Assembly: GCA_030264375.1 (NCBI GenBank)
Contig: JASCQW010000081.1
Coordinates: 53,108,875-53,172,874, forward strand
DNA from: Carcharhinus longimanus
Taxonomy: Eukaryota
Length of the DNA stretch: 64,000 bases
Direction: 5' to 3'
Position numbers and translations under genes: made by a program. This document shows positions 41,732 through 59,364 of the stretch, in pieces. The notes beneath the pieces are model-generated. The model worked only from the letters and a program-made list of their open reading frames with translations, was not told the origin of the DNA and searched no databases. Position 1 is the stretch's first letter; each line of letters opens with the position of its first letter.

Positions 41732-42819
41732 CTACAGAAAATACAATTGAGTTACAATGGCACTTCTAATTAATGTGGCTGCCTAGGACAAAAATGTTGT
41801 TAAAGGTAAGTAAAAAAAAATTTTAAAAAGCACCTCTCTTTTCACCTTCAAAGTCGCTAGGGCTGTTGAAATTAATAAACTAATTGACAGCGTTACTGTG
41901 GTAATTGAGTACTATCCACTCTTTGAGTAGTGTGTGTGCGCACGCGTGTGTGTGCATGCATGTGGGCAGAGCTTGTGGGGAGAGGAACGTGGTCATGTTC
42001 AAAGCAGTGTTTTTAATGAGCTCCTTCTGTGTTAAATTGGAAAGCTGAAGTTACACACGTGCTAGGAGTATTGTTGATTACACAACAGGGTTCCACAATA
42101 ACAGATAATGCAAATTTTAGTGAAATCAGAATATGGTATGCCATTACATCAATAAATTCAAGTTTCCAAATGCAAAGAGTAATTTATGACTAGGATCTTC
42201 TAATGAAATGTTGAGACTGAATTTTAAAAGATTTGCTTGAAAACTTAATCTGCATATTTAGTATAACAGAATAAGTTTTATCAACACCCTTATATGGAGA
42301 ACAAAATGGTGCTCCCCTCTTAGGGTGGCATGAAATTCATAACAAGGGAGATTCCACCACTCCCATTTCATCTTTATTGGAAATATAATTTTTGAATGGA
42401 AAGTCTAAATCAAACAGTGATGCTGCTGCATGGTTTTCCTGCAAGGCACTGTCGTACTGGTCAGCCTGTCATCAAAGTTCCAAACCAGCCAGGCAAACTT
42501 TACTGAGCTAGAGAATCTAATGGCCTTCCTCATTAGTTTATTCCTTGTGTAAGAGAACTTTACTGCTTTTTGTGTAATGTGAAACAAAACCTACTGTTTC
42601 TCTAGATTTACAAAAGAACTCCTCCACCCATCTCTCCAACCCACAGTACTTTCAATTCCAAAAATACAAGGAAATTTTCTCTCTGATGAGTTATTAGTTT
42701 CTAAGCACTTCACTGCAAAGTGCCCATTTTAAAGCCACAGGAATCTTACTATCCTTACCCCTACCAATGCTTTCTGATGGACAGGTTTATGAAAGATATT
42801 AGATTGTTTATATATGGCC

Positions 42820-43898
42820 AACAAAAACCACTATTGCTGTGATAGCTCAAAGCCTGCCATTTGACAGGTATGATTTGTTACAGAGAACTTGTTAGTGACT
42901 TCCAATGTTTCCCATTCCTTGATCCAAAGGAGCTCTGCTGGTGGATCTTGCTTGGGGTGGGTGCTCCATAAGGGGCACTAAAGATGGACGGTAGGTGGGT
43001 TGAACAGGTCATTATCAAATGGCAAGCAAAGTGCAGTATAGATTGTTTCAACATGGGTTTTCGTCAGCCTATGTGTGGGGGAGTGATCTTTGAGAAGACA
43101 GACCTTTAGCACTGACTGAGTCTTATATTTCAGCCTGGAATTCGGTCTGCTAAAACTGAGCCATCTACTCTCGACCAGACCCTTAACGAAGATGTTACAA
43201 AACTGACTACTGCAGCTCGTCTCACATTGAATCCCTCCAAAACCATATGTAATGTATTCCACCTCCACAATGCCAGCACCCAAAAAATAAATTGCATATC
43301 TACATGAATGGCCAGAGACGAAGCATGATCCCATCCTAACATGCTTGGGAGCAACTCTAGATAGTACCTTGTCTTTCAGAAACATTTGAAAAAAAACTGT
43401 AGCAATGTTCAAACCAGAAACAATCTGCTAACCAAATTTGCCAGGATCTAAGTGGGTTGTTACTGCCACAACATTCTGGATGTCAGCATTTGCGCCATCA
43501 TACTCTCCAGCAGAGTATTGGGCACCTGTCTGCTAAAGGTCATCTCTCACACATCTTGTGGAACTCAACTGAACTCAATGTGCATCAAAACTGAAAACCT
43601 CCATGCAATGCTCCTCCCCGGCTTCCAGTCTTCTCAAAAGATCAGCCCCCACACGTACACTGACGAAACCTCACATCAAAACAATGCGTCCTGCACCTTA
43701 CTTGCCATTTGATGACCTGTTGAACTCATCTACTGCCCATCTTCCATCTCAATGCCCCATATGCCAAGCAAGATCCACCAGCAGAGTTCCTTTGGATCAA
43801 GGAATGGGAAACATTGGAAGTCACTAACATGTTCTCTGTGACAAATTAATCTGTCAAATGGCAGGCTTTGAACTATTACAGCAATAATGGTCTTTGCT
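42820..43898. repeat. Long inverted repeat, arms 42820-43099 and 43628-43898
   Basis: For example gttagtgacttccaatgtttcccattccttgatccaaagg versus cctttggatcaaggaatgggaaacattggaagtcactaac. Confidence 0.92.
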
Positions 43899-44100
43899 AA
43901 ATAGGTTCAGGGCAGACCAGACCCCTGCGCAGTCAACCTTCACTACTGTGACATCAGTACAAACCCCTTATGCATGCGTGGAGAGACAAAACAATGCTGC
44001 AAATTACCACCGACAAAATGGTGGACCAATTATTTTAAACTCAGCAAATGAAGAGGCTATCGCTTCGACTCAGGGATTTGCTTTCACTAAATAATAAAAA
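43120..44100 (+). mobile_element. RTE-X-like LINE 3' fragment
   Basis: NLLTKFA.SKW and LNRFRA...LNSANEEAIA motifs; ends taaataataaaaa. Confidence 0.65.
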
Positions 44101-48267: not shown

Positions 48268-48599
48268 CATGTGGAGATGCCGGCATTGGACTGGGGTAAG
48301 CACAGTAAGAAGTCGCACAAGTTTTGCAGTTAAGTATCGCGCGTTTGGGGACATCGCAGGTGTCAGCACACCTGAAGTGCAATGGGCTGGCCTCGTCCTG
48401 GGCGAACTGCCTGCATGATCACAGTTACACCAGGTAAACATCAGGTTAAAGTCCAGCAGATTTATTTGGTAGCACGAGCTTTAGGAGTGCTGCTCCTTCA
48501 TCATAGGTACTCACCCGATGAAGGGGCAGTGCTACAAAAGCTCATGCTACCAAATAAACCTGCTGGACTTTCACCTGGCGTTGTGAGATTTCTTACTGT
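48268..48599. mobile_element. Palindromic non-autonomous element (probably Penelope-end derived) hosting the U1 fragment
   Basis: Arms caggttaaagtccagcagatttatttggtagcacgagcttt and aaagctcatgctaccaaataaacctgctggactttcacctg; flanked by ataaatcctt / ataaaccctt. Confidence 0.75.
48316..48441 (-). pseudogene. U1 snRNA-derived fragment (5' end to Sm site; stem-loop IV missing)
   Basis: Minus strand reads atgtttacctgg...tgatcatgcaggcagttcgcccaggacgaggccagcccATTGCACttcaggtgtgctgacacctgcgatgtccccaaa...actgcaaaacttgtg, colinear with U1. Confidence 0.88.
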
Positions 48600-49385: not shown

Positions 49386-50104
49386 ATATAGCGATATCCA
49401 AAGGCGATATGGATAAGCCACAATCTTTGGCATAATTGTCATGTTACCTTATCAATGTAAACAATTTATTAAGAAATTAGTGTGTCTTTAAAAAGCTAGT
49501 AATCTAGACGGACAACTGTAAATAAATTGGAGATACTTGAGTTTTAAGAAGAATTATCATTCGCCAATGTCTTTGACACAACCAAGACTCAAACGTGCCT
49601 CATTCTCAAGTTCCCTACTTCCAAGTGAGGATTCAAATAGACCTCTTTGCATCGCAGCTCAGCTAGGAAACAGGATGATGGCCCCAATCCTGAACAGAGT
49701 TTATATTTGCACAGAGAATGAAAAATGCTTTCTAATCCTTGGACCAATGCATTGATTCTAATTTGAACACATTTTTTACTGCATTTCAGTAGTAGGGGAG
49801 GCAGTGGTGCAGTATTGCATTGGTCTAGTAATCCAAAGGCCCAGGGTAATGCTCTGTGGACCTGGGTTAAATCCCACCACAGCAGAAGTGGAATTTGAAT
49901 TCAATTAAAAAAAAGCAATGTAGAGCAATGACAACATTTGTGTTCAGCCATATACCAGTAGAGTACTCCATCTACAGCCTTTAACTTTGAAAAGAATAGT
50001 TTTAAAAGAAACTGAGCAGCATAAAAACCTGCAAGAGGACTTGGTACAAGTACAGAGAACTGTTTAGCTTTTAATTCTAAATGAGGTGCATAAGTTCTTT
50101 ACAA

Positions 50105-50280
50105 CAAAAACAGGAAATGCTGGAAAATCTCAGCAGGTCTGACAGAATCTGTTGAGAGAATAGAGCCAACGTTTCAGATCTGATCATTCTCTCTCCACAG
50201 ATGCTGTCAGTCCTGCTGAGATTTTCCAGCATTTTCTGTTTTTGTTTCAGATTTCAGCATTCACAGTATTTTGCCTTTAC
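50105..50280. mobile_element. Short foldback element (Penelope-end type)
   Basis: aaaacaggaaatgctggaaaatctcagcagg / cctgctgagattttccagcattttctgtttt; related half copies near 5030, 12230, 34905, 57670 and 59175. Confidence 0.75.
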
Positions 50281-51080: not shown

Positions 51081-51940
51081 CCCGAAAGGAGTGAGGCTGA
51101 TTATAATATTTAAATCTCAAATTAAGTATTATTAGTGAGCCCGGGGCGGAATCGTCTGGGCTCACTTGCCTTAATGGACTCGTGGTGGAGATCCTCACCA
51201 GCGAGGATCATGTATGATCCCAGCAACAGGGGCCAAGACGTGATGGCCTTCGAGTGGGAGGGGCACTGCCAGCCTGGCACCCTGGAACTTCCCACTGACA
51301 GAGCCTAAGGGGAGGGGGTGGGGCTGTGCACTCAAACTGGGGTTTGGGTGGTGAGCAGGGATTGAGATGGCAATTGACTGGGGAAGCCAGCTGAGGGGAG
51401 GGGAGGGGAGGGGGAGCGTACACAGAAATCCAAGATGCATGTGTAACAGTGCCCCTTGCAGTCAGCAGCTCGCTTCCTAACAAGAATAGACTCCATCCAC
51501 TCTGCCTACTGATGTGATTCACACTTTGCCTCTTTTTTGCACGAAGTGGCATAAGTTACCATTTGAGAGCTCACCTAAAAAATTGGTGATATTCTATCCC
51601 GTTTTCACACTCATTCAGCATTTCGAATTCTTTTGGTAAGAGTACCCCCTGATTTTTTTTCCAATTAATCGCCACACTTATTAAGTTCAGTCTTCACCAA
51701 AATATGATTTCCCCCCACCTATGTAAGCAATTTCAAAGATTTGTTATATCAAGTATTTTTCTCAGTTTTGTTTCTGATATATTCCAATCGTTTAATAATG
51801 CATGCTGATTTGCTGGGCTGAATGTCCAATACAATTTCATGGCAGCTGAGCTGTTATTGCAGCTGGTTAAAATAGTATTGTTTACAAGTCTTACAGTCAA
51901 GGGCAAAACTAGGCACCTCCAAATGTAAGTGACTACTTAC

Positions 51941-51987
51941 TTCTTCCCAGCTGTCTCACGTGAATAGTCATCTCTGCAATAAAACTC
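51941..51987 (-). CDS. DHX9: DHX9 exon 7
   Basis: 47 nt, phase 2-1; SFIAEMTIHVRQLGR; tttcag acceptor, gtaagt donor. Confidence 0.95.
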
Positions 51988-53646
51988 CTGAAATGACATG
52001 CACAACATGAAATTAAATCTGCCATTTTAGCACTTCCACCAACCCAGTGATACTGAACCATATAATAAAATTTAACAAAATAATGCCCAACACATCTTGA
52101 ACAAATGGGAAAAGGCATGATTTGTAAAGTGAGAATACAGTACAATGCAAATACTTCAGATGTAGGTGATAAAATCGCTGCAAATAGTAATCTAGAAGTT
52201 TAAAATGAGTTGAAATATTCCATCTATTCTAGCTTCTAAAGACGACAATAAGACATATCAAAACAATAAGATAAAAAAAATCAAAGGGCTTCAAAGTCAA
52301 ATATAACCAATCTTAGTGAAGCAATGCAAATTTTTAGCATAGTGCACAATTAGTGGCACAACTCTATTGGTTGCTGCAGGAAATGCAGGACAGCGTTTAC
52401 ACCAATGTCTCCCCACAGGGAGATAATCGCATTTAGGCAATTAAGTAGAAACCCAAGAAGCAAGTGGGGCTCTTCTACTTGCAGACCTCCCAGGGGAGGA
52501 TTACAGAGGGGCACTGGGGAGCATTACAGAGAGGCATTAGAGTAACTTAATAGATGATTATGTACGTACCATTTATCACAAAAATATTGAATGGAAGCAG
52601 AGAAAACTGAATATCAATTGAAAAACAAAAATCCTTAATTTAAATGGTTACTTGGGTTTGCAACAGAGTCTTGGCATAAACAGAAAAAAAAAATTAGCCA
52701 TAACCGATAGGGCATCCATTGTTTGGAACTTATTTACAAGTTCCACGAACCAAATGTGGTTAAATGTCATCATCTTACTGTGCATCACAGCTGAGTACAG
52801 CAGCTTATGTAACCCATCCTTTGCCATATACAGGCTCAGAAGTATTTGAAAATATTTGCCATACACTTGCGTGGAAGAATTTAATAAATTCCATACTCAT
52901 TTATGAATCCATTTTTACCTGTGATACAAAAATAAACGATTGATGTACATAACAAAACAATGGCTACCCGAAAGTATTGAATTTCCTAGCTTTGAAGAAC
53001 AATGTGCTCTAGAACCATGTACTCTAATCTCAAGTTTGCAAGTTTTTGCATGGGCAAGCAATTTTTTTAAATTTTTCAATCCAATCATAATTAATTGCCA
53101 CAAACTACCTATTCATATATACATTAAATCCAAGGCAGCCATTTTATATTAGCGGCAAACTTTTAGAAACGCATTGATATAAATAAATGAACTGGAATGC
53201 AACATACAAAGATTTTAAGCTGTAATAAAACTTTCTCTATTTATACCTGTAATTTAAAAAATGTCAGTGAGGCACTTAAGAAAAACACATTCCTGCACTG
53301 AATATGAAAAAACAGGGAAAGTTGCATCCAATACACTTTAGTACTGCAGCATTGTATATGTGGTTAATTTCAACTGTGCATTAGCATTTGAATGGAAAAC
53401 TGTTGAGCTGGAACTAGCGTCCTGACTGACCAATTTCATTAAAGAACAAAGTAAAACAGAATTGTCATATCATCCGAATTTTCTATTGCTTTGACATGCA
53501 CCCAAACACAAGTTTTGGCCAGTTCTAAAGATAACATCCAAATGATGTGCCATCAATATATGGTTCAGTTCTGGAATCTAGTCCTTGGCATCAACAGCTT
53601 TTCTTCAGTACTATGCATGCATCTTGTTTTAATCTGTATAACTCAC

Positions 53647-53808
53647 TTCTGATCCTATATTTGGTCAACTGAGATCAAGCACAGCAACTTCACGATTCAG
53701 AGAAGCCTGTTAATAGGCCCATTATCCACCATTCTTGGATGCCAGTATGTTTCTCTGCCAAGCTTAGTAAAGTTCCAATCTCCATCAGCCCTAGGTCCCC
53801 TAGAACAC
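53647..53808 (-). promoter_or_regulatory. Candidate DHX9 poison (PTC/NMD) cassette exon in intron 6, exon 6A-like
   Basis: cttttcctatag|GTGTTC...CAGAA|gtgagt; 162 nt; in-frame TGA at 53699-53697 when spliced to exon 6; no recognisable repeat nearby. Confidence 0.6.
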
Positions 53809-55189
53809 CTATAGGAAAAGTGACACCAGAAATCAACAGCTGTCTATGATTGCTTGTACCATCATTCCTACAATGGAAGGATACCATGTGACAGCTTAGT
53901 GCAGCCTAAGCAACGTCACATGTTTGCAAGAGCGGTTTCTGGTGTCACCTCACTCCCATGACATTAAAGGAGTGACAGGTTTGTCACTTTTATTTAGTTT
54001 AAGTTTTCTATCTTACAATTTATCATCTATGGTTAAAAATATTTGCAATCGAACACACAAGTTTTGAAATAATATCATTGCACATTATAGACATTCTGCC
54101 CATTGAGTTTTCAAAGTACATAACTTATGTGCATCTATGTTTTTAAAACAATTTTGCATACTCAACATAAGTGCACAATGTTTTGGGAGGTCGAATGTAA
54201 TTTGGTAATTTAGTACCTTCTCAAACGTATGGGCAACATAGGAAACTGCTTCTACAGTAGATCCCTGCTATTTGGGCCTGTAAAGTCATAAAATCTCCAA
54301 ATAAATGAAAATCATCATCTCTGAACAATATGTTGCATCTTGAAATCCAATAGAAATTCAACAATCTGTTATTTCCCAATTAGCAGGAATCTACTATATC
54401 ATATTTAAGTTTCTTAGCATTCATAGGGGTACTGGGCAACTACCCCATTGAAAGCTCTATATAACAAGGCAAGCTGGCTGAGAAACATACTGGTACCATA
54501 CCATGAAGTATGGAATAACTCAGTTTTCAAACAGAAACCATCAGCTACAACAGGAACATTATTATGACAACTTAAAAAATACTTTTCACTAACACTAGCT
54601 TTCCCATTGCCTAGTACAATATCCTAATTATCTGCTCCTTCAGTGTTTTAAATGTATTAGGATTACATTCTGTCAGCTAAGTTAAAGAAGTTTCATNNNN
54701 NNNNNNNNNNNNNNNNNNNNNNNNNNNNNNNNNNNNNNNNNNNNNNNNNNNNNNNNNNNNNNNNNNNNNNNNNNNNNNNNNNNNNNNNNNNNNNNNCAAT
54801 CCTTGAGATTCAATGCTGAAGTACTCAAAATCAATTTAAAAGCTTGATGTGACCTGACTAGTACCTCTTAGCTGAAATCTTTTTTCCATTACTGAAAACA
54901 ACCTTATTTGAGTAACTTCAGATTGAAGACCCTAAACATTCAATAGTTGCCGTACATTTCAAACTGATCAAATGAGACAAACTATCTTTTACAGTCTGTC
55001 AGCATGCATTCAGCATTATAAGTTCACGTTGCAGCACTGCCACTAAGTTCAATAACAGCATTATGGGGAAAAAAAAGAAAGTTGCTGGAGATTCAAAAAA
55101 AGTGTGTTTTCGCTGGTCAAACTTCATCTTGTAATTATACCCACTAATTCGTGTGTATAGTCATTCATTTGGCGTAGGTCTGCTACTGC

Positions 55190-57190
55190 AGTCGCTTCAG
55201 GAGCCGAATATTCTCTTAATCCTGAAACTGGACAAAAATTCTGAGCAGTGCACTTCTCAGACCAATTTCTTCCTTGAATGTCGATTTGAAAGTGTTGGCT
55301 AAGATGCCTGGAGAAAATCGTTCCTGTGGTTACCTGTGATAAGACTGAATTTATTAAGGGTCAGATCTCATCCTTCTTGGATGTCGAAAAAGCCTTCAAA
55401 TAGGGTAGATTAGAATTATTTCTTTGATACCTTGAAAAAGTTTGGATTGGGAGAGTTTGGATTGTGAAGTGAATTCAAGTACTCTTAAGAACCCAGTGGC
55501 GATGGTCCTTACAAATGGTTTTAGATCTTAGATTTTTGGCCTCAAGAGGGACAAGACAGGGATGTCCCTCATCTTTTTTGTTTGCTCTAGCTATTGAATT
55601 TTTGGTGCAGGTCGTTAGACATGACCCAGGTTTTTGGGTTCTAGAGTACAGGAAGACTGCATAAAATATGTGGATGATATGTTGCTGCTTGTTTCCATGT
55701 CGGCTGTCCTGCTATTACTGATGAGGGAGCTAGATTTAGTTTTTTTGCGTTGTAAGATTAACTTCACGAAATCAGAGGCAATGCCCCTGGGCATGTTAAA
55801 GGGTAAACCCCTCATTCTTCTCATTTTCCCTTCAGGTGCCCTGCCCCCCACCCCCATTGGGGTTTACTTATCTGGGCATTCATATTGCCCCTGGTTTTCA
55901 GCAGTTCTAAAAGGTGAACTTTCCTCAAATACTAGCCTCCATTAGATGGGTCATACATTGTTGTCCATGAGTTGGAGGGGAGATCAAATTTAACATTCAC
56001 TCTTCAATTCAGGGTAATCCAGATTTCCCGCCTGGTTGCATGAATCATGGTTTGATATCTGGAGGACAGAAGACTCTGTAGATAAAGGCTCATAATTGAT
56101 AGCATTACCCTGTTATCTTTTGAGCAGCAATGTTGATTTTCCAAAACACTCCTTTTTTTTAGATATTTGCAACTTAGGGACTTTGACCTTAAAGCAACTC
56201 TTCTTTTAGATACTATCTGTGGAGCCCAAACATTTCATTAGTAAATTTTCTGACCCACTATGCTCTAGATTTTACATTACATTGGACACTGTGTTCTTAG
56301 GAAAGAGACCTCACAGTAAATCTTGGCAAGGAGACATAGGGTGGTATTTGAGAGTGCAGTAATAAAATTTCAGTTTGGAATAAAACAAAAAAACTCAGCT
56401 TAAACATGGCATCACCTGTATATTACTCTAAGTTTGAGGCACAGGGTTGACCCAGCCACATCCTCATTTTGCCAGAAGTGTGAGGTGGACGCAGAGGATT
56501 GCCTGCACTGTTGTTGGTCCCATGTCAAAATGAAAGCCTATTGGTTCAATGTTCTTAAATAGCTTTACAGGATCTTTGATATGGCCTTAAAGTTCATTCC
56601 CACGCATTCAATACTGGGTCTCCCAGACAAAAGAATCAGTAACGTGAATGAGAAAAGGCTATATAAGATGCTATCTGCAACACGGAAGAATATTCTTTGT
56701 CCACAGATTAGTGATAAGCCCCTTCAATTTGGATACGGCATAAAATCATTCTGGAACGTATACCAGTGGAATTCATAACTAGTTTACTTTGAGCTAAATC
56801 AGATACATTCCGTAAAGCATGGGTCCCTTATCTTAAAGTCTGGACACCACATGGTCTAGTTTACTCCAACAAGGTTTACAGCAAGTTCCATGGCTCTGTC
56901 ACCATTATCCTGTAAGCTTGGTTGTGCACCGCTGAGTCAACTGTGGCCATATCCTGTTGTCCTAATACTCCCCCCATCCTTCAATATATCATTTTGTTCC
57001 TTTGTGAGATGGGAGGTGCTGACTACAATGAATAATCTGAACTAACTGGATTGGTAATTTTCCTTTCTTTTTCGACACATGCTTGTTTGAAAATGATCTT
57101 GCCTTACTGCACCAATCTTTGAGAGCTTGTTGCATTAATTGTATAAAATGAATAAAAACTTCAATGAAATTACATTTTGAAAAAAAGTCA
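55190..57190 (+). mobile_element. Degenerate L1/Tx1-type LINE 3' part
   Basis: RPISFLNVDLKVLAK, FLDVEKAF, RGTRQGCP..LFALAIE and YVDDMLL motifs, Cys-rich C-terminal remnant, A-rich end. Confidence 0.8.
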
Positions 57191-57714
57191 AGCTTTTATA
57201 CAAACTAGTATTATTCAGAAAGGCATTGCAATGTCCTGAGAGATTACCAGGTCATCTTTCTCAGTTACTACTCACATATCATCTAGGACCAGGACAACTA
57301 GGTAAAAACCAAAAGAAAGGAGAACGAATTTGAGTAATTAGTAAAGAAGTTCATTTTTATGCATAATGAATCTTTGTCATCTGGGTAAGTCTGAATCATG
57401 CCAAAAAACATTGCAACCGATTCCTGAAGCATTTTCGAATTATTTTCAATTTTGAATGTAAAAGTGAATTGGTGCCCAATTTAGAAAATTAAAAATACAA
57501 GAAATCCTAGCAGCTTAAGAAAAAAGTAAATAAGCATTTGAAGAGCACCACGAATATCCGCCGAGTTTACCAAGCACCTCTCAATAAAATACATTTGAGA
57601 TGTTCTCATTGTCATAATGAGAAAAACATTAGAACTTGTTGGCCCTTATGAAACGTTAGCTCTGTTCTCCCTCACCGCAGATGCTGAGATCTTCAAGCAT
57701 TTTCTTTGAGATTG

Positions 57715-57960
57715 GTTGACGGATAAATGTTAGCCAGGATGATGTTACTCATGACAATCTTTACATTGGATCTTTTACATTCATTGGAGGGGGTAGACAG
57801 ACTCAGTTCATCATTTAATCTAAAATACAGCATTCTTGACTGTGCAGACTTCTGCAGTCCTGCTCTGAAGTGTCAGTCTAGAATATGTGCTTAAATGTCT
57901 GAAGTCTGTATTCAATTCAGCTTCTGATTCAAATGCATATGTACTACCACTGAACCAACT
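57715..57960 (-). mobile_element. DeuSINE/SacSINE1-like SINE
   Basis: ggatcttttacattcatt...gaagtgtcagtctagaatatgtgcttaa...ttctgattca...ccactgaacc; a plus-strand relative is at ~61790-62130. Confidence 0.65.
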
Positions 57961-58369
57961 CTACGCTTTTAAGTAGTTTGCAACTTTTGTAATTCTTACA
58001 AATGAGTGAATTAATTATCTTCTGGATCTACAAGAATAACATACATTTGATTTACTGAATATTTTCGATAAAATGTTACTCTGGAACATTTATTCATTTA
58101 ACTAGATGAACTTTAAAAGGTGCTCTATTCTTTATTATGTGGTTTCTAGAAGGGTTACTATTTTTGTTTCAAGCAGAATTGCAAATCTACTACCAGTACG
58201 GGCACATCCATGGGAAGCAATAGTTGCATTGTTCCCATTTAACCTCACTTGACAAGTGGGGATAAATGGGATACTAGTTTACATTTCAGAATTGCACAAC
58301 ATGAAAACCATAAAAATTATTATTGCTGCATTGCTCAATTGATTAGTCCACAATTAAAATGTATCAAAC

Positions 58370-58518
58370 CTGTTGTGGTCAGGTCCCACTTGTAAATACT
58401 TATAATCTGCTTGAATCTTCTCTTTTTGGAAGAATTGGTTAAGTTGTGCTTTGGCATTTTCAAGTGTCCAATTGCCATGAAGGCCAGCATTCAAATCTAA
58501 GCCTTCAGATTCCAAAGT
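58370..58518 (-). CDS. DHX9: DHX9 exon 6 (start of dsRBD2)
   Basis: 149 nt, phase 0-2; TLESEGLDLNAGLHGNWTLENAKAQLNQFFQKEKIQADYKYLQVGPDHNR. Confidence 0.96.
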
Positions 58519-59364
58519 CTAGGAAAAAGAGTTATTTGTTACAAAAAGTTGTGCAAAAATAACCTTCTGCATCTTTTTGTTATACAAATTGCAGTGGCTA
58601 TATTTTCAACACATAAAAAATACTGCGAAGAAATACAATTATTTCTGTAATGGCTAAGTGGAGCCAAACATGCCGAGGTACTCAGGCTCAACCCTTGGTC
58701 TGTGGTTAGCTATCAACCAGTGCTATACCCTGAAAGGGAAAGACAGGTCTAAACTAGTTTGGTCAGGGTCCCTGCACCTAGGATCCATTAGAGCAAAATC
58801 TTGTTTTCATCCAGTTTATATCCCCACCTTTCAAGAAGTGAAAATCTGCTCATTTCCAAGCCCAACAATATCAATACCAATTGCAGCACCACTATCATCA
58901 CTCAGTTACTTCATTACCAATCAGAGATCAAACTTTTTGTGTAACCCAATGCCACAGCATCCCACGCACTGATCCACCAGGGAGTATCATTTCGTTTTGT
59001 TTATTCTAACATTTATGCAGTTCATGAGGAAGACTAAATTACAAATAGGCACAAATATATTTCTAAATTCACAATTCCAACTAAAGACATCTGTAAAACT
59101 TTTACTTCAGACTTCATCTTTTTTACAATATAATTTGGCTCAATCTGAATTCAAAATTGCAACAAGTGAAAATGTTCTGACCTGCTGTGTATTTGTTTTT
59201 AATTTCCAATTTCCAGCATTCGCAGTATTTTTCTTGCGGGAAATGGTATTGTTTTTATTAGGATGCATTGTGCAGAAAATATTTCTCAAACCATCTTCAT
59301 GAACATACTGAATTACTGAGACAGTCACACTACAACTGTACTTATCATTATGCATGTCCCTTAC

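Follow-up and report, generated by a model that had tools for sequence, protein, structure and literature searches.

Among RNA helicases, control of a gene's own splicing by an intronic hairpin has been described in plants. In DRH1/RH14 and RH46, the so-called DEAD motif forms an intronic helix of ~20 bp at an alternative 3' splice site, and opening of this stem shifts splicing to non-coding forms, a shift that needs the host helicase, according to the parts of the sources available to us (PMC12218528; bioRxiv 10.64898/2026.01.23.701338); the available text of the preprint further presents a hairpin of ~20 bp over an NMD acceptor that is opened in plants by the gene's own helicase (bioRxiv 10.64898/2026.01.23.701338). 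Human DHX9 carries a poison exon, 6A, in the same intron as the element studied here, which leads to NMD and has been explained by Pol II speed, hnRNPM and SRSF3, as far as the available text goes (PMC4741636, PMC7072589); in that text, words beginning with autoregul- are absent and no RNA structure is described for exon 6A. The fly orthologue of DHX9, MLE, uses dsRBD2 to bind a 19-bp stem and has a preference for U-rich RNA, as given in the accessible portion of that report (bioRxiv 10.1101/2022.11.11.516098), and DHX9 itself is a cancer drug target, with ATX968 as an inhibitor (PMC11831107, in part). In the literature searched, which largely lay outside subscription journals, we found neither a described structure in DHX9 intron 6 nor any account of DHX9 controlling the splicing of its own transcript, and neither is mentioned in the available parts of PMC12067447, PMC11831107, PMC12809107, PMC8501971, PMC13651330, PMC11838218 and PMC13251931.

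In this work, we analyzed a candidate hairpin cluster within a 64-kb window, i.e., the whole stretch of shark DNA under study. Protein similarity identifies the host gene as shark DHX9, a DExH helicase encoded on the minus strand: the segment 58372-58518 (-) matched RNA helicase A chains with an E-value of 7e-25 (phmmer), and a downstream exon was 98-100% identical to shark DHX9 proteins, which were the top rows among 410 matches. Exon 6 (58370..58518, minus strand), which holds the start of dsRBD2 in human numbering, is joined to exon 7 (51940..51986, minus strand, recognized by translation) at 51986-58369, with CT..AC ends, in 4/4 of the runs taken as RNA-like (X1, X8, X18 and X20, the last from organism I), a status assigned by guess, as none of the listed runs is catalogued as RNA, and backed by exon-exon joints. 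This joint delimits intron 6 (51987..58369, minus strand), which carries the element, in agreement with its original assignment to DHX9 intron 6. The human exon 6-6A junction primer, in the available text, ends in GPDHNR codons, the same as the end of shark exon 6 (PMC4741636, PMC7072589); therefore, the intron that carries the element is the one holding human poison exon 6A.

Intron 6 (51987-58369) was covered nearly end to end by X1 and X8 contigs, and X20 showed a contig depth of 45 upstream of the poison exon and of 9 for one contig downstream, contig depth being a poor measure. Contigs did not extend into introns 5 or 7, of which the query (51850-58600) held just 82-90 nt each. Detention of intron 6 is possible from this contig cover in RNA-like runs.

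The 3' splice site of the candidate poison exon, at 53809/53810, is borne out as an alternative acceptor by a splice joint, and the exon contains in-frame stops. In an RNA-like contig of X20, exon 6 is spliced to 53808 (listed joint 53806-58368, CT..AC ends), and a loose X20 contig end coincides with the end of exon 6; hence, a related shark does use this acceptor, joining exon 6 to it. The contig depth was 25.6 at this joint vs 220.6 at the exon 6-7 joint; the short side of the X20 joint comprises 26 letters, and the joint was absent in the other 3 of the 4 RNA-like runs. The exon, which we refer to as '6A' after its human counterpart, spans 162 nt (53647..53808, minus strand), its 5' end being given by the X20 joint and its 3' end being predicted from the nearest donor consensus, GAA|GTGAGT (GTGAGT at 53641..53646, minus strand); no joint from this donor (53646) to exon 7 was found among those listed in the 4 RNA-like runs. 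Read in the frame of exon 6, the exon contains 3 stops, the first being a TGA at 53699-53697 (minus strand). X20 had no cover over 53540-53780, and its word share of 0.34 (~12/35, vs ~2.9 expected from the covered piece) hints that the exon body is conserved in the X20 organism as well. A second donor-like site, TTG|GTCAGT, lies at 53430. Contigs of X8 and X18, from two studies, both end at 53468-53473, just past a sense-strand AATAGA hexamer (within 53468-53487) which we take to be a minor poly(A) variant, a weak hint of an intronic 3' end near these positions.

Upstream of this acceptor, all six arm pairs that had been proposed proved to be exact reverse complements, and the six GTGAC/GTCAC copies counted within 53816..53991 were found at 53820, 53888, 53915, 53944, 53972 and 53983, the maximum for any 176-nt segment of the 64 kb, which holds 97 copies in total. 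GUGAC/GUCAC pairs are common to three separate stems in 53820-53988, which might go back to a local duplication of some age or to a motif that one protein recognizes in each stem. The sense (-) strand of 53800-54010 folds at -72.7 kcal/mol (z -5.29; 0/200 shuffles as stable), and the antisense (+) strand of the hairpin reaches z -4.67, so that the strand asymmetry is small. Only 5 perfect inverted repeats of at least 12 bp with a gap of at most 200 exist in the 64 kb, and the 13-bp stem is among them, with a probability of 0.94 in the predicted ensemble. The sense-only G-U extension of this stem into the pyrimidine tract, as originally described, is reproduced by the folding model through a GAG/UUU and an AUGGGA/UCCUAU segment, whose mean P values are 0.83 and 0.94, respectively. 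Together with the 13-bp core, these segments form a predicted helix of 22 bp with one 2-nt bulge, spanning -24 to -3 and hereafter called the gate helix. Its predicted 3' arm (53811..53832, minus strand) comprises the core and the pyrimidine tract to -3, and its predicted 5' arm (53936..53959, minus strand) the core, the GAG extension, the 2-nt bulge and AUGGGA. Enclosed by it lies an inner hairpin of 8-9 bp plus 6 bp (53885..53922, minus strand; P 0.997-0.998), one pair of which is broken in organism I.

In the folding model, 18.1 kcal/mol would be needed at the poison exon to free the final 20 bases of the intron, compared with 7.4 at exon 6, 12.8 at exon 7, and a median of 7.0 and a maximum of 14.2 kcal/mol at 26 background AG sites; the poison-exon acceptor thus has the highest opening cost among the 29 sites. 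The acceptor AG itself (53809..53810, minus strand), fixed by the X20 joint, would sit mostly unpaired at the helix base (unpaired P 0.60-0.68). The likely branch-point A (53833, minus strand, at -25) falls at the helix edge with an unpaired P of 0.52, within a UUGAU that matches the yUnAy branch-point consensus. Accordingly, the original proposal that branch point and tract are both structure-gated holds in the model for the tract, which is buried in the helix, and much less for the branch point, which is about half unpaired.

The hairpin had also been called switchable, and here the model gives a different picture. The 10-bp competitor (53816-53825/53982-53991) has a P of 1e-4 at +7.1 kcal/mol and likewise hides the tract, which is covered in both folds. 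The 7-bp rival (53969-53975/53950-53956) lies at +3.3 kcal/mol with P 0.015, would free the distal tract only, and competes with the distal 6-bp helix only; its P ranges from 0.002 to 0.86 across six transcript lengths, and it may represent a partial, kinetic alternative. The upstream 7-bp hairpin and the competitor arms (53969..53991, minus strand, placed by sequence and fold) are not alignable in organism I, the most distant relative compared, in which 65 letters without likeness stand in place of 53964-54033, the segment with the competitor arms, although short islands could survive there. With one dominant fold in the model and these arms replaced, a conserved two-state switch is not upheld, and the element would rather be a lock opened by an enzyme.

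The gate hairpin is predicted to be one of three long helices in a conserved domain of ~900 nt, of which the original prediction had caught part only. A z-scan in 80-nt steps gave the gate element only -2.4, because its windows cut an arm; a finer scan of 298 windows gave -5.09 for the gate hairpin and -6.87 for 54250-54409, the next best value being -2.75. The latter segment holds a second hairpin (54253..54398, minus strand) with an outer helix of 18+5 bp (P 0.96), a single match in the 2.68-Gb genome (a lower bound), and a sense bias that arises through G-U pairs (z -5.71 sense vs -2.94 antisense). The third helix would connect the intron with the poison exon itself: an intronic arm (54470..54493, minus strand), with a 14-bp perfect core plus 6 bp (P 1.0 and 0.86), would pair with an exonic arm (53742..53766, minus strand) identified by predicted fold and pairing search, the core joining 54480-54493 to 53742-53755 (14 bp, P 1.0). 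This intronic arm was the best partner of the poison exon among 232 intron windows, and 0/500 shuffled arms paired as well. Three helices of at least 14 bp within 960 nt occurred in 0/2000 shuffles, the region having been chosen after the fact.

Further complementarity was observed around these helices. Long-range complementarity extends over 54470-54555 (-) and 53637-53766 (-), with weaker pairing predicted along the exon and over the donor site. In a later DHX9 intron, 42818-43036 and 43691-43900 form a long near-perfect inverted repeat ~900 nt apart, which on one strand gives an uninterrupted helix of 66 bp and may serve as a dsRNA substrate. Two further intronic hairpins of DHX9, at 48448-48571 and 50103-50246, contain 35-bp helices and are probably repeat-derived.

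The stretch is present in 20 listed runs from 11 studies under nine organism labels, five rows of which may be the source, and its conservation is strong in four organisms, whose differences fall far below those of the flanking intron; the comparisons are not entirely independent of one another, the window serving as the reference in each. In organism I, the hairpin differs at 6/183 positions vs 138/1042 (13%) in other alignable intron pieces (Fisher p 1e-5); in organism H, at 0/266 vs 22/397 (p 1e-5); in organism D, at most at 4/1036 vs 1.9% outside (p 6e-5); and organism A shows 1 difference in the 909 nt of 53595-54503 vs 11.4 expected (scan-corrected p 0.019). The few differences in organisms A and D delimit the whole block of ~900 nt, with exon and three helices, at 53595..54503 (minus strand).

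Conservation at the level of structure has weak support. None of the 4 listed substitutions in organism I is compensatory, in a comparison of few sequences where 2 further changes, deduced within 53934-53963 (which holds the 5' arm), are unlisted. One substitution turns a U-A into a U-G pair in the gate helix, another breaks a pair of the inner 8-bp stem, a third breaks a 2-bp helix, and the fourth affects a position that is only loosely paired. The joint cost of the four is 7.0 kcal/mol, a value that 315/400 random four-base sets equal or undercut. The second hairpin (54253-54398) is alignable in organism I, the five listed indels of its block lying outside the predicted stems. In metagenome contigs, the exact stem pattern gave 0 matches, and the exon 6 peptide identified 1 locus (L002, 84% identical) among 347 candidates, with only ~470 nt of intron; this piece scored 27 against the domain vs a shuffle mean of 25, a value that says nothing about bony-fish conservation. 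Three additional runs, X21, X22 and X24, gave 0 aligned records, which does not prove absence, and none of these searches returned the element from a bony vertebrate.

Compared with the systems described above, the locus most resembles the plant DEAD motif, in that a helix of ~20 bp, predicted in the shark, lies in an RNA helicase gene over an alternative 3' splice site whose use leads to a PTC, and strong sequence conservation is accompanied by little covariation; negative feedback by unwinding, shown or proposed in plants, would operate here by analogy. However, the plant motif belongs to DEAD-box helicases of land plants and is a single hairpin with the alternative acceptor at the stem base, whereas shark DHX9 is a vertebrate DExH helicase with dsRBDs, and its putative cassette-type exon is associated with a predicted multibranch hairpin and two further predicted long helices; moreover, the shark gate helix would hide the tract but leave the AG 60-68% unpaired, unlike the plant motif. 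The shark element is thus outside the plant family (other helicase family, other kingdom), and an independent origin is inferred from the unrelated genes; DHX9 has 0 occurrences in the plant preprint (bioRxiv 10.64898/2026.01.23.701338). Human exon 6A shares with the shark exon the gene, the intron, the PTC and the initial GTG; the human donor is AAG|GTCAGT, vs the GAA|GTGAGT predicted in the shark, and four human primers reach only the level of shuffles when compared with the shark exon (4/4, a comparison of low power). Conserved long-range RNA pairing likewise controls the poison exons BRD2 exon 3b and BRD3 exon 5b, but these pairings lie in the flanking introns of non-helicase genes and do not sense the activity of their own enzyme, judging from the text available (PMC10789245). 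The roX2 stem-loop 7 bound by MLE resembles the gate in its ~19-bp stem, the use of dsRBD2 and the U-rich strand, which shows that enzymes of this family are able to act on helices of this kind, according to the available part of the report (bioRxiv 10.1101/2022.11.11.516098); in contrast to the shark element, roX2 is an lncRNA that MLE acts on in trans in the service of dosage compensation, rather than a splice signal in the enzyme's own pre-mRNA.

Taken together, the stretch is a real, conserved splice-regulatory domain whose structure is predicted. Our leading but tentative proposal, by analogy with the plant motif and with a probability that we place a little short of even, is that this conserved single-copy stretch acts as a sensor of helicase activity, by means of which DHX9 would keep its own level in check via the poison exon. 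Since transcription yields the 5' arm first, the gate helix is predicted to close as the tract emerges; closed, it would keep U2AF off the tract, given the established role of the latter, and the exon would be skipped. The second hairpin and the long-range helix onto the exon would add dsRNA. DExH helicases load on the 3' side of duplexes; at this element the exon lies 3' of the gate helix, with the U-rich tract as the strand to be tracked. DHX9 would therefore grip the helix with its dsRBDs, load on the exon, and travel 3'-5' along the tract strand, freeing the tract and thereby bringing about inclusion of the exon. Translation would then end at the stop at 53699, within dsRBD2 and ahead of the motor, and the message would presumably be lost by NMD.

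Most of these observations can be read otherwise. The structural and conservation evidence would fit equally well with a static silencer of the poison exon whose inclusion is tuned by Pol II speed, by factors of the hnRNPM/SRSF3 type or by another helicase, and not by DHX9; human exon 6A responds to elongation rate, hnRNPM and SRSF3 (PMC4741636, PMC7072589), and the BRD2/BRD3 poison exons are under structure and elongation control (PMC10789245), in the available parts of these papers. Folding of nascent prefixes also gives a transient 7-bp pairing, which occupies the extension arm as long as the tract has yet to be transcribed. Such a silencer leaves unexplained why an RNA helicase gene carries three long helices, and the plant precedent is helicase-specific; we regard it as a serious reading, although unlikely on the whole. 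A dsRNA platform, on which ADAR would perform A-to-I editing or the dsRBDs of DHX9 would bind without unwinding, would change the splice signals or hold intron 6 back from splicing, with intron 6 detention or editing-dependent inclusion as the output; it would accord with the resemblance of the long-range intron-exon helix to an editing-complementary sequence and with the nearly full cover of intron 6 in X1 and X8. X20 also shows an A>G change on the sense strand at 53812, inside the helix; however, this change is uniform across the X20 contig, and X1, X8 and X18 lack it, a pattern for which a genomic difference is the simpler explanation. The runs are RNA by guess only and contig depth is a poor measure; we consider the platform improbable.

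Flanks of poison exons are often conserved for sequence reasons, and the block could have been kept for primary-sequence protein-binding sites around the exon, its folding being incidental. The lack of compensatory changes, the broken inner stem of organism I and an antisense gate hairpin that folds nearly as well are in line with this, but three long helices, absent from all 2000 shuffles, a second hairpin that is sense-biased through G-U pairs, and an acceptor with the highest opening cost of 29 sites make incidental folding quite improbable. As for a mobile element, the 10-bp terminal inverted match and the recurring GTGAC/GTCAC would suit the remnant of a MITE or other inverted repeat, and most other long helices of the window resemble inverted repeat pairs. 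Nevertheless, a DNA search and a stem-pattern search of the 2.68-Gb genome each found the element once (lower bounds), and no direct repeat is common to the sequences on either side of the 10-bp ends, as the original prediction had noted in reporting no target-site duplication. A MITE was thus largely rejected, with single matches in all three genome searches, that of the second hairpin included, no target-site duplication and conservation above the flanks. A nested snoRNA or miRNA was considered with it: Rfam 15 gave 0 matches at gathering score, and 3 weak ones at E up to 5 over 51900-58600, all elsewhere in the intron region and away from the element. Among the Rfam matches, a SNORA1 match at 51949-52117 (-), overlapping exon 7, is weak (28 bits vs a gathering score of 70, E 0.11) and probably due to chance. 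We consider a repeat remnant or nested RNA to be hardly credible.

DHX9 is a dosage-sensitive dsRNA helicase whose human poison exon has been explained so far by polymerase speed and general splicing factors only; if the proposed sensor is true, the structure making the exon responsive to the helicase would be the missing DHX9 feedback. In its broadest form, which we hold with clear reservation, a three-helix dsRNA sensor of ~900 nt in DHX9 intron 6, kept across sharks and perhaps mirrored in mammals, would let DHX9 gauge its own unwinding activity and trigger the poison exon. This would be the first such feedback of a DExH helicase and a case of convergence with the plant DEAD motif, and DHX9 inhibitors or splice-switching oligonucleotides would act on it. 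Compensatory up-regulation of DHX9 would then be predicted upon treatment with inhibitors, and the domain would offer a target for oligonucleotides raising or lowering DHX9. Helicase-sensing splice gates, tested so far only in plants, would thus have arisen independently in vertebrates.
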